From contig CAKPMX010000003.1 of NCBI GenBank assembly GCA_934168205.1, positions 409-64,408 on the forward strand: a stretch of 64,000 nucleotides of DNA, written 5' to 3'. Source of the stretch: an uncultured Bacilli bacterium (lineage in GTDB: Bacteria; Bacillota_I; Bacilli_A; RF39; UBA660). The translations under genes were made by a program, and so were the position numbers. Numbering within the stretch: position 1 is the first letter of the stretch; each line of letters starts with the position of its first letter. Positions 19,634 through 20,371 of the stretch are shown piece after piece. The notes under the pieces were generated by a model. That model ran no database searches and was not told where the DNA came from. It saw only the letters and a program-made list of their open reading frames with translations.

Positions 19634-20371
19634 ATGGAACAAAATATTGTTGTACTTAAATCTAAATTTAAAGAAATCAAAAATAAAGGCTGGATAGAGG
19701 CTAGTTCTAATGGACGTGGAAACGTTGGTATTACATTTGAAAAAGAGTTAGGACTGAGTACTAATCGTTCTGAAAATCCAGATTTTAACGGAATCGAAAT
19801 AAAAACAAAGCAAAATAACCTGTATAAATATATAACTCTTTTTAGTTCAGCGTTTGATGGGCCATTTCCATTTGAAATGAAAAGGATTTCTGAAAATTAT
19901 GGTATGTATGATGAAATATGTACGGATGCTAAAGTCTTTTTTGGTATTGTACGTGCCGATGAATCTACAAAAATTGGAAAAAAATGGAAATTTAAGCTAG
20001 AAGTTGATTATATTGAAAAAAGAGTATATTTAGTTGTATATGACAATAATAATGTTATTATTGATAAACAAAGTTATTGGAGTTTTGAATTATTAAGAAA
20101 ACGTTTAGAAACTAAGTTAACTTATTTGGCTTTTATTTTTGCTAAACGAAAGTTTTGTCATAATAAAGTGTATTTTTTATACTATGATATTAAGTGGTTG
20201 AAATTGAGAGATTTTGAAACATTTCTTTTCTTACTTGAAAAAGGCATCATTAGAGTTAGCTTTAAGGTTGGCGTATATAGATCTGGACCTAAGCGTGGTA
20301 AATATTATGATCATGGAACTAGTTTTGAAATACAGGCCGATGACATTGATTGTTTATTTTATAATTTATAG
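19634..20371 (+). CDS. MutH/Sau3AI/MvaI-BcnI-family PD-(D/E)XK endonuclease homologue (orphan; no adjacent methyltransferase)
   Basis: The segment KGWIEASSNGRGNVGITFEKELGL..ENPDFNGIEIKTK aligns motif-for-motif with E. coli MutH (KGWIG..LE..LG....EQDF..GVELKT). The catalytic D...ExK triad is present. 245 aa, similar in size to monomeric BcnI/MvaI. Confidence 0.55.
   Translation: MEQNIVVLKSKFKEIKNKGWIEASSNGRGNVGITFEKELGLSTNRSENPDFNGIEIKTKQNNLYKYITLFSSAFDGPFPFEMKRISENYGMYDEICTDAKVFFGIVRADESTKIGKKWKFKLEVDYIEKRVYLVVYDNNNVIIDKQSYWSFELLRKRLETKLTYLAFIFAKRKFCHNKVYFLYYDIKWLKLRDFETFLFLLEKGIIRVSFKVGVYRSGPKRGKYYDHGTSFEIQADDIDCLFYNL

Follow-up and report, generated by a model that had tools for sequence, protein, structure and literature searches.

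A solitary MvaI-type endonuclease gene kept beside tRNA-Pro in uncultured gut Bacilli

RESULTS

An MvaI-type endonuclease with an intact active site

We analyzed a 64,000-nucleotide stretch of DNA (the window; positions 409 to 64,408 of contig CAKPMX010000003.1) from an uncultured Bacilli bacterium and studied a gene in it whose product is related to the restriction endonuclease MvaI. The gene, hereafter the nuclease gene, and its putative expression signals are as follows.

19634 to 20371, plus strand: nuclease gene, encoding a solitary MvaI/BcnI-family PD-(D/E)XK endonuclease of 245 amino acids (aa), with an ATG start and catalytic residues E36, D50, E55, and K57
19583 to 19626, plus strand: putative expression signals, consensus matches only, namely, a sigma-70-like TTTATA-17-TAGAAT (19583-19611) and a Shine-Dalgarno GAGGTG (19621-19626)

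The Shine-Dalgarno motif lies 7 nt before the start codon. We scanned one genome per GTDB species and found relatives of the nuclease encoded in 195 species; the loci of the best 80 were compared, and a Shine-Dalgarno-like motif precedes the gene in 62 of these 80 orthologs. The Pfam profile PF15515 (MvaI_BcnI) matched the protein from end to end (E = 1.8e-41; 143 bits against a gathering cut-off of 25 bits), with residues 10-242 aligned on profile positions 2-227 of 227. A type II restriction endonuclease model of PADLOC also matched (3e-34), and R.MvaI (2oa9) was the sole PDB sequence match at E<=10 (2e-32, residues 4-236). Searching NCBIfam with the protein returned no named family or model; members of its sequence cluster bear the NCBI label "MvaI/BcnI family restriction endonuclease."

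The catalytic residues of MvaI are Glu36, Asp50, Glu55, and Lys57 (PMC1874612). Alignment placed E36, D50, E55, and K57 of the nuclease at positions identical to the MvaI numbering, and all four residues were invariant in 35 database homologs as well as in 81 aligned orthologs. We then used the alignment to model the protein with AlphaFold2 (predicted local distance difference test score, 93.3; predicted template modeling score, 0.89) and compared the model with known structures. The predicted fold has two lobes, one catalytic and one beta-rich and devoted to recognition, as in the PF15515 family, and both Pfam and the model describe a single domain with no additional modification reader. Foldseek gave a template modeling (TM) score of 0.91 to 0.92 with the MvaI-DNA complex 2OAA (root mean square deviation, 2.0 Å) and of 0.72 with BcnI (2ODI), against 0.33 (E = 0.09) with MutH, for which the PDB sequence search returned no match at E<=10. 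Given TM scores of 0.91 for MvaI and 0.33 for MutH, the nuclease is specifically MvaI-like, and its likeness to MutH is at the superfamily level only. As judged from sequence and model, the protein is predicted to be a full-length, catalytically competent MvaI-type endonuclease.

An earlier note on this DNA had proposed a nuclease of the MutH/Sau3AI/BcnI kind with the D50/E55/K57 triad and a size fitting BcnI/MvaI. The family match, the MvaI fold, and the invariance of these residues bear out an MvaI/BcnI-type nuclease, the length is 245 aa against 246 aa for MvaI, and the alignment revealed no loss of catalytic residues in the tetrad. The same note had read the active-site region as a match to MutH; D50, E55, and K57 are indeed present, but the resemblance was overstated.

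In two of the compared loci (designated here by L numbers), a second, divergent MvaI-like paralog lies just upstream of the ortholog. The first (L079:9273-9998, plus strand) abuts the active gene and is devoid of the catalytic residues, "TLYD" and "SNISIKISKK" replacing TFE36D and PD50xxGIE55IK57. The second (L048:570-1382, plus strand) has N in place of E36 and E in place of D50. These catalytically altered paralogs may be regulatory or partner subunits.

Replacement of the residues that read the 3' half-site in MvaI

R.MvaI of Kocuria/Micrococcus varians (2OA9/2OAA) is a type IIP enzyme that cuts CC^WGG and shares ∼31% identity with the nuclease. It reads the C-2:G+2 and C-1:G+1 pairs via H223, the main chain of D224, and H225; it reads the center and the 3' GG half via D207, R209, T68, R230, and T102; and it contacts the minor groove through N28, T29, and N45 (PMC1874612). 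In the nuclease, the first set aligns with Y225, D226, and H227, so that H223 is replaced by Y, and the D-H-G-T recognition loop, T68, and Y213 are kept. In contrast, D207, R209, R230, and T102 correspond to S209, K211, E232, and I105, and the minor groove residues correspond to R28, G29, and R45. Among the 81 orthologs, the H/Y-D-H loop, which faces the 5' half-site, belongs to the better-conserved columns, whereas the columns aligned with D207, R230, and T102 exceed 62 to 77% of columns in variability and the one aligned with N28 varies most.

Since the readers of the 3' GG are replaced and also vary among orthologs, CCWGG specificity cannot be assumed for the nuclease, and its target is probably not CCWGG. 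The CCWGG, CCSGG, or GATC specificity implied by the earlier note is thus doubtful. A shortened or asymmetric site, which is plausible but unproven from these substitutions, would entail strand-specific nicking by a monomer with one active site.

No methylase or controller linked to the nuclease gene

As a rule, restriction endonuclease genes do not persist for long, are mobile, and go together with a methylase. We scanned all six reading frames for motif IV of amino-methyltransferases ([DNS]PP[YFWH]) and for the PCQ motif of C5-methyltransferases. Neither motif was found inside any open reading frame (ORF) of the 64-kb window, prophage included. The same scan over all ORFs of the 80 species loci (∼1.1 Mb; ∼10 kb around the gene) gave two matches only, a 287-aa NPPY protein that lies 6.8 kb away and is PrmC-like and a 137-aa ORF with SPPF; neither of the two makes a plausible DNA methyltransferase. 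As a positive control, SPPY and FxGxG were detected in the methylases beside three plasmid-borne relatives of the nuclease, one of which is annotated as hypothetical only, which shows that the motif scan works. We found no controller protein or other linked regulator: the 102-nt intergenic region upstream of the gene leads directly to a divergent Peptidase_S11 gene. By these scans, the nuclease gene is solitary, with no linked methylase or controller in the window or in the 80 other species loci, and the absence of a nearby methyltransferase, which the earlier note had pointed out, extends to those loci.

The region upstream of the orthologs was also searched for regulatory motifs. An SOS/LexA (Cheo) box was present in perfect form in 0 of 80 and with one mismatch in 1 of 80, against a background of 3%, and no other conserved motif was found upstream of the 80 orthologs.

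A native chromosomal gene next to a prophage

The nuclease gene lies close to the left junction of a prophage, in the following surroundings.

18470 to 19531, minus strand: D-Ala-D-Ala carboxypeptidase gene (Dac, Peptidase_S11), the divergent upstream neighbor kept in the sub-lineage
20528 to 20547, minus strand: terminator hairpin and T-run of the tRNA operon, beside the displaced 3' fragment of tRNA-Pro
20558 to 20574, no strand: attachment (att) core copy TGGTCGGGAAGACAGGA, the displaced 3' end of tRNA-Pro, at the left prophage junction
20575 to 56136, no strand: prophage of ∼35.56 kb integrated in tRNA-Pro(UGG), given as context and outside the nuclease locus
53378 to 54085: CI-like S24/helix-turn-helix (HTH) repressor of the prophage, at the tRNA-proximal end with the integrase
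54881 to 56026, plus strand: tyrosine integrase of the prophage, beside the intact tRNA-Pro
56120 to 56196, minus strand: tRNA-Pro(UGG), first of a 12-tRNA cluster (56120-57412) and, ancestrally, the convergent neighbor of the nuclease gene, with the att core at 56120-56136

The att core is the 3' end of tRNA-Pro(UGG) and occurs in exactly two copies, at 20558-20574 and 56120-56136. The stop codon of the nuclease gene is 186 nt from the left copy, so the gene is outside the prophage and, as had been noticed earlier, just beyond its left junction; the terminator of the tRNA operon stands between the gene and the original position of tRNA-Pro. No third or older att copy bounding the nuclease gene was found, even with up to 3 mismatches allowed. 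A prophage-free contig of the same species (L186), which encodes an identical Dac protein, matches window positions 14970-20574 and then directly 56086-58584 at 99.6 to 99.9% identity. Because this contig is contiguous without the prophage, the prophage inserted between the gene and tRNA-Pro, and the nuclease gene is a native chromosomal gene rather than prophage cargo.

The same site has received other insertions. In L004 (10863-12966) and L010 (10785-11805), insertion sequence (IS) elements with Y2_Tnp and ISL3-family transposases, and no prophage, lie between the nuclease gene and tRNA-Pro, and in L010 they are followed by a FemAB/MurJ-like cell wall cassette and prophage genes. Since IS elements occur there in other strains and species, the interval between the nuclease gene and tRNA-Pro is an insertion hotspot.

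Linkage to tRNA-Pro across species

Almost all of the best 80 loci come from metagenome-assembled genomes (MAGs) of uncultured gut "Bacilli" or "Tenericutes," and contigs from metagenomes and MAGs that encode an identical or 97%-identical nuclease share its flanks. The gene order FAD-oxidoreductase, metallophosphoesterase, Peptidase_S11, nuclease is common to ∼25 loci; among them, the nuclease is 37 to 98% identical to that of the window, in step with the identity of the neighbors. In prophage-free relatives, this 12-tRNA cluster follows the nuclease gene within ∼50 to 700 bp and lies on the other strand.

We counted as informative the 55 loci whose downstream sequence spans 700 nt or more. 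In 50 of these 55 species, the first feature downstream of the nuclease gene is tRNA-Pro(UGG), in convergent orientation and with its 3' end 50 to 400 bp away. This linkage persists in the most distant matches examined (∼35% identity) and also holds where the tRNA cluster is otherwise different, as in L180, which has Pro-Ala only. On the other side, we distinguished ∼35 upstream contexts, and all of the annotated ones are housekeeping: Dac, MutY+NUDIX, exonuclease III, thioredoxin-like, HerA-like, dGTPase-like HD, RsmI, PAP2, PFL, and RluB. No integrase, mobility gene, or methyltransferase stands beside the nuclease gene among the annotated contexts of the 80 species. Genomic breakpoints have fallen repeatedly on the upstream side but almost never in the ∼100-bp spacer to tRNA-Pro. 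Antisense control by read-through from the tRNA operon and a role linked to the attB hotspot are speculative ideas for this asymmetry.

DNA repair genes occur among the upstream neighbors: MutY+NUDIX is divergent upstream in 5 loci, exonuclease III is found in 3 genome loci and in L096, and RmuC is two genes upstream in some sub-lineages. We considered an enrichment in such neighbors (MutY, Xth, RmuC), which is real in a few sub-lineages, and judged it weak, as it concerns only ∼3 of the ∼35 contexts.

We also scanned metagenomes starting from Dac. Relatives in which Dac is away from tRNA-Pro have no nuclease gene beside Dac, and three loci that have the tRNA cluster also have the nuclease gene, a pattern that makes tRNA-Pro, and not Dac, its constant partner. 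In L121 (positions 1-3300), three unrelated ORFs of 400, 328, and 137 aa, rather than the nuclease gene, separate tRNA-Pro from Dac, showing that what fills this slot is replaceable and that the nuclease is not strictly universal. Another contig, L123, seemed to belong to the same species and to be without the gene and was discarded as an apparently inverted or chimeric assembly.

An exhaustive profile search recovered 2609 cluster representatives at 50% identity, 490 of them at E<=1e-30; the best 150 of the 2609 are all stand-alone proteins, nearly all of 235 to 281 aa, with E<1e-59. Two members of the nuclease cluster are short, P0070 (96 aa) and P0071 (174 aa), and both are on 22,143-bp contigs. 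This shared contig size suggests that some strains have an allele split by a frameshift or nonsense mutation; the gene would then be dispensable at times. Some carrier MAGs have unexpected titles (Acidaminococcus fermentans, Muribaculaceae, or Ruminococcus sp.; L016, L049, L055, L063, L072, L075, and L090) and are probably misbinned or mislabeled; L016 also has synteny on the Dac side.

Vertical inheritance under purifying selection

To place the nuclease gene within the history of its host, we compared it against five close relatives (six loci). The ratio of nonsynonymous to synonymous substitution rates (dN/dS) of the nuclease was 0.08 to 0.11 (∼0.09), with values of 0.03 to 0.18 for neighboring genes, and dS was similar across the nuclease and the flanking housekeeping genes. 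Pairwise identities of the nuclease correlated with those of Dac, the metallophosphoesterase, and the FAD-oxidoreductase (Pearson coefficient, 0.73 to 0.84), and a neighbor-joining tree grouped the nuclease orthologs by upstream genomic context. Together, these results indicate that the gene was acquired long ago and has since been passed on vertically under purifying selection, and they do not fit a decaying island remnant; if the gene ever arrived on an island, it did so before the lineage diversified. The host is an uncultured, low-GC, spore-forming gut Bacilli lineage, within which the nuclease is vertically inherited.

These values run counter to a further proposal of the earlier note, which had tied the gene to the prophage junction and suggested a remnant of an older island: the prophage-free contig has the gene beside tRNA-Pro, as do 50 of the 55 informative species, no third att copy exists, and both the dN/dS of ∼0.09 and a dS like that of the housekeeping neighbors speak for a resident gene.

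Site frequencies in carrier and control loci

We asked whether carriers avoid particular sites. CCWGG occurs 30 times in the 64-kb window, where 44 are expected, and its observed-to-expected ratio (O/E) over the ∼1.1 Mb of carrier loci is 0.66, which ranks it 4 of 512 pentamers. However, CCWGG is likewise low (O/E, 0.60 to 0.74) in control loci that have no nuclease gene beside Dac, and we rejected its avoidance as a clue to specificity because depletion is equal in these controls. The deamination products CTWGG and CCWAG showed no excess in carrier loci. GATC is depleted as well (O/E, 0.53 in the window and 0.56 over the 1.1 Mb of related loci) and is uninformative, as carriers and controls are alike. 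CASTG has an O/E of 0.61 in related loci and 0.76 in the window, and it too is low in low-GC control loci without the nuclease. Since such controls also have few GATC and CASTG sites, these depletions are unrelated to the nuclease; they hint that restriction of some other kind has long acted on these gut Bacilli.

DISCUSSION

A possible barrier against foreign DNA

The reading that we favor, tentatively and with somewhat less than even confidence, is that the nuclease is a standing barrier against foreign DNA that its host tolerates without a linked methylase. By analogy with MvaI, one monomer would grip DNA with two lobes, one for recognition and a catalytic one in which E36/D50/E55/K57 act with Mg2+, and a single strand would be cut per binding event. 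The loop that reads 5'-CC in MvaI (Y225-D226-H227 here) is kept, and the readers of the central base and of the 3'-GG are changed and differ between species; a shorter or asymmetric target would make the enzyme a strand-specific nickase. Tolerance would best be accounted for if cleavage needs a modification or sequence state that is absent from host DNA, in the manner of type IV or type IIM enzymes, or if the nuclease nicks only. MvaI itself nicks m5C (5-methylcytosine)-modified CCSGG sites, a methyl-directed strand nicking (PMC3001055). Like type IV and type IIM modification-dependent endonucleases, the nuclease stands alone, with no linked methylase. Signs of dispensability, i.e., the L121 slot with other genes and the possible split alleles, also count for a barrier role.

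Several observations weigh against this reading. Most type IV enzymes have a dedicated modification-reading domain, and the nuclease has no separate one. Defense genes are usually patchy and mobile, whereas the nuclease behaves as a core gene amid housekeeping genes. Finally, no site is depleted in host DNA specifically in nuclease carriers compared with controls.

Other readings of the nuclease

The core-gene behavior of the nuclease, its vertical inheritance down to ∼35% identity, and dN/dS and dS values like those of its housekeeping neighbors would be natural for a domesticated nickase with a host function, recruited for strand incision in repair or for recombination and latent until a partner activates it. 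No methylase or controller occurs in any species examined, MutY+NUDIX, exonuclease III, or RmuC is nearby in some sub-lineages, and the monomeric single-site architecture is inherently that of a nickase (PMC1874612, PMC3001055). Taken further, the gene would be a second, independent MutH-like domestication, a fixed, latent, strand-specific nickase of chromosome maintenance whose position beside tRNA-Pro is part of its regulation or function. We regard both forms of this proposal as possible but rather unlikely: enzymes like MutH keep one fixed site, yet the base-contacting positions vary here, above all the N28 equivalent; the 80 orthologs are without a LexA/Cheo box; the repair neighbors are a weak and post hoc argument; and in L121 the slot is taken by other genes. 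It is improbable, in turn, that the nuclease is the separated half of a type II restriction-modification (R-M) system, cutting an unmodified pentanucleotide in a host guarded by an equally fixed N4-cytosine (N4C) or N6-adenine (N6A) methyltransferase encoded elsewhere. The similarity to a bona fide type IIP enzyme does extend over the full length, recognition lobe included, an active CCWGG cutter would need protection given the 30 CCWGG sites in the window, and there is precedent, as 57 of 272 solitary restriction endonucleases were assigned distant methylases (PMC3488263). On the other hand, no methylase lies within 10 kb in 80 species, mobile relatives keep their methylase and controller tightly linked, long-term fixation of an unlinked endonuclease and methylase across hundreds of species would be unusual, and the differing specificity residues among orthologs would require co-varying methylases.

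That the gene is cargo of a prophage or island, or the decaying remnant of an element once integrated in tRNA-Pro, is essentially excluded. It does abut an active integration site, occupied by a prophage here and by IS elements in L004 and L010, and one relative (L121) has unrelated genes in the slot. However, it is outside the att copies that delimit the prophage, the prophage-free strain has it too, there is no older att copy upstream and no integrase or mobile neighbor in the 80 species, and selection is strongly purifying, with invariant catalytic residues.

Relation to known systems and significance

Compared with R.MvaI, which belongs to a mobile R-M pair, the nuclease has no M.MvaI-type N4C methylase nearby and is chromosomally fixed and vertically inherited. 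Plasmid-borne MvaI/BcnI R-M relatives share 25 to 31% identity with it over ∼95% coverage; examples are on Liquorilactobacillus nagelii pL11827-3, Clostridium perfringens pCPCPI18-6_1, and Macrococcoides caseolyticum p19Msa198-1. On these mobilizable plasmids, a divergent SPPY methyltransferase and a small HTH controller precede the endonuclease gene, whereas the nuclease gene has neither partner and, unlike these relatives, is flanked by a tRNA cluster and by a gene for a peptidoglycan carboxypeptidase. MutH, the methyl-directed mismatch-repair nickase of E. coli, was recruited from a Sau3AI-like ancestor. The nuclease shares with it the PD-(D/E)XK superfamily, the D-x(n)-E-x-K motif, a monomeric, two-lobed nicking architecture, and the status of a solitary chromosomal gene from a restriction enzyme lineage; it differs in its recognition lobe, the recognition residues of which are not conserved across orthologs.

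Solitary restriction endonucleases were surveyed by Ershova et al. in 2012 (PMC3488263), and those enzymes (e.g., HpaII-like, in Bacteroides) resemble the present one in having no linked methylase, in being conserved among related genomes, and in their unexplained self-tolerance. The MvaI/BcnI family is not mentioned in that survey, and the clade described here is much larger and deeper (195 species; at least 150 clusters at 50% identity, E<1e-59) and has a fixed position beside tRNA-Pro. In the searchable literature, we found no description of this nuclease clade, and to our knowledge its carriers are abundant uncultured gut bacteria without any genetics. For a restriction enzyme, it is unusual that a large, deep clade of MvaI-type nucleases should be solitary, under purifying selection, and fixed in position throughout the diversification of the host lineage. 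One possibility is that these bacteria have a way to tolerate a type II-like nuclease without linked methylation, be it modification dependence, nicking, or latency; another is that host DNA metabolism has once more taken over a restriction enzyme, as is familiar from MutH. Either outcome would be of interest to the R-M and DNA repair fields and could yield a new nicking or methyl-directed specificity.

Other features of the window

The prophage contains a lysis-like module (21441-23155) with a weak SH3_3 match only, its own tRNA-Arg(CCU) (41055-41131), and a weak 124-nt tRNA-like Rfam match (35251-35374). Its structural region includes a perfect (CTGT)n tract of ∼20 copies (24508-24609), through which a phage gene could be phase variable by strand slippage. 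Outside the prophage, a T-box leader (124 bits) is found at 12483-12703 on the minus strand and, by synteny with L001, lies upstream of a class I aminoacyl-tRNA synthetase (ValRS-like) gene.
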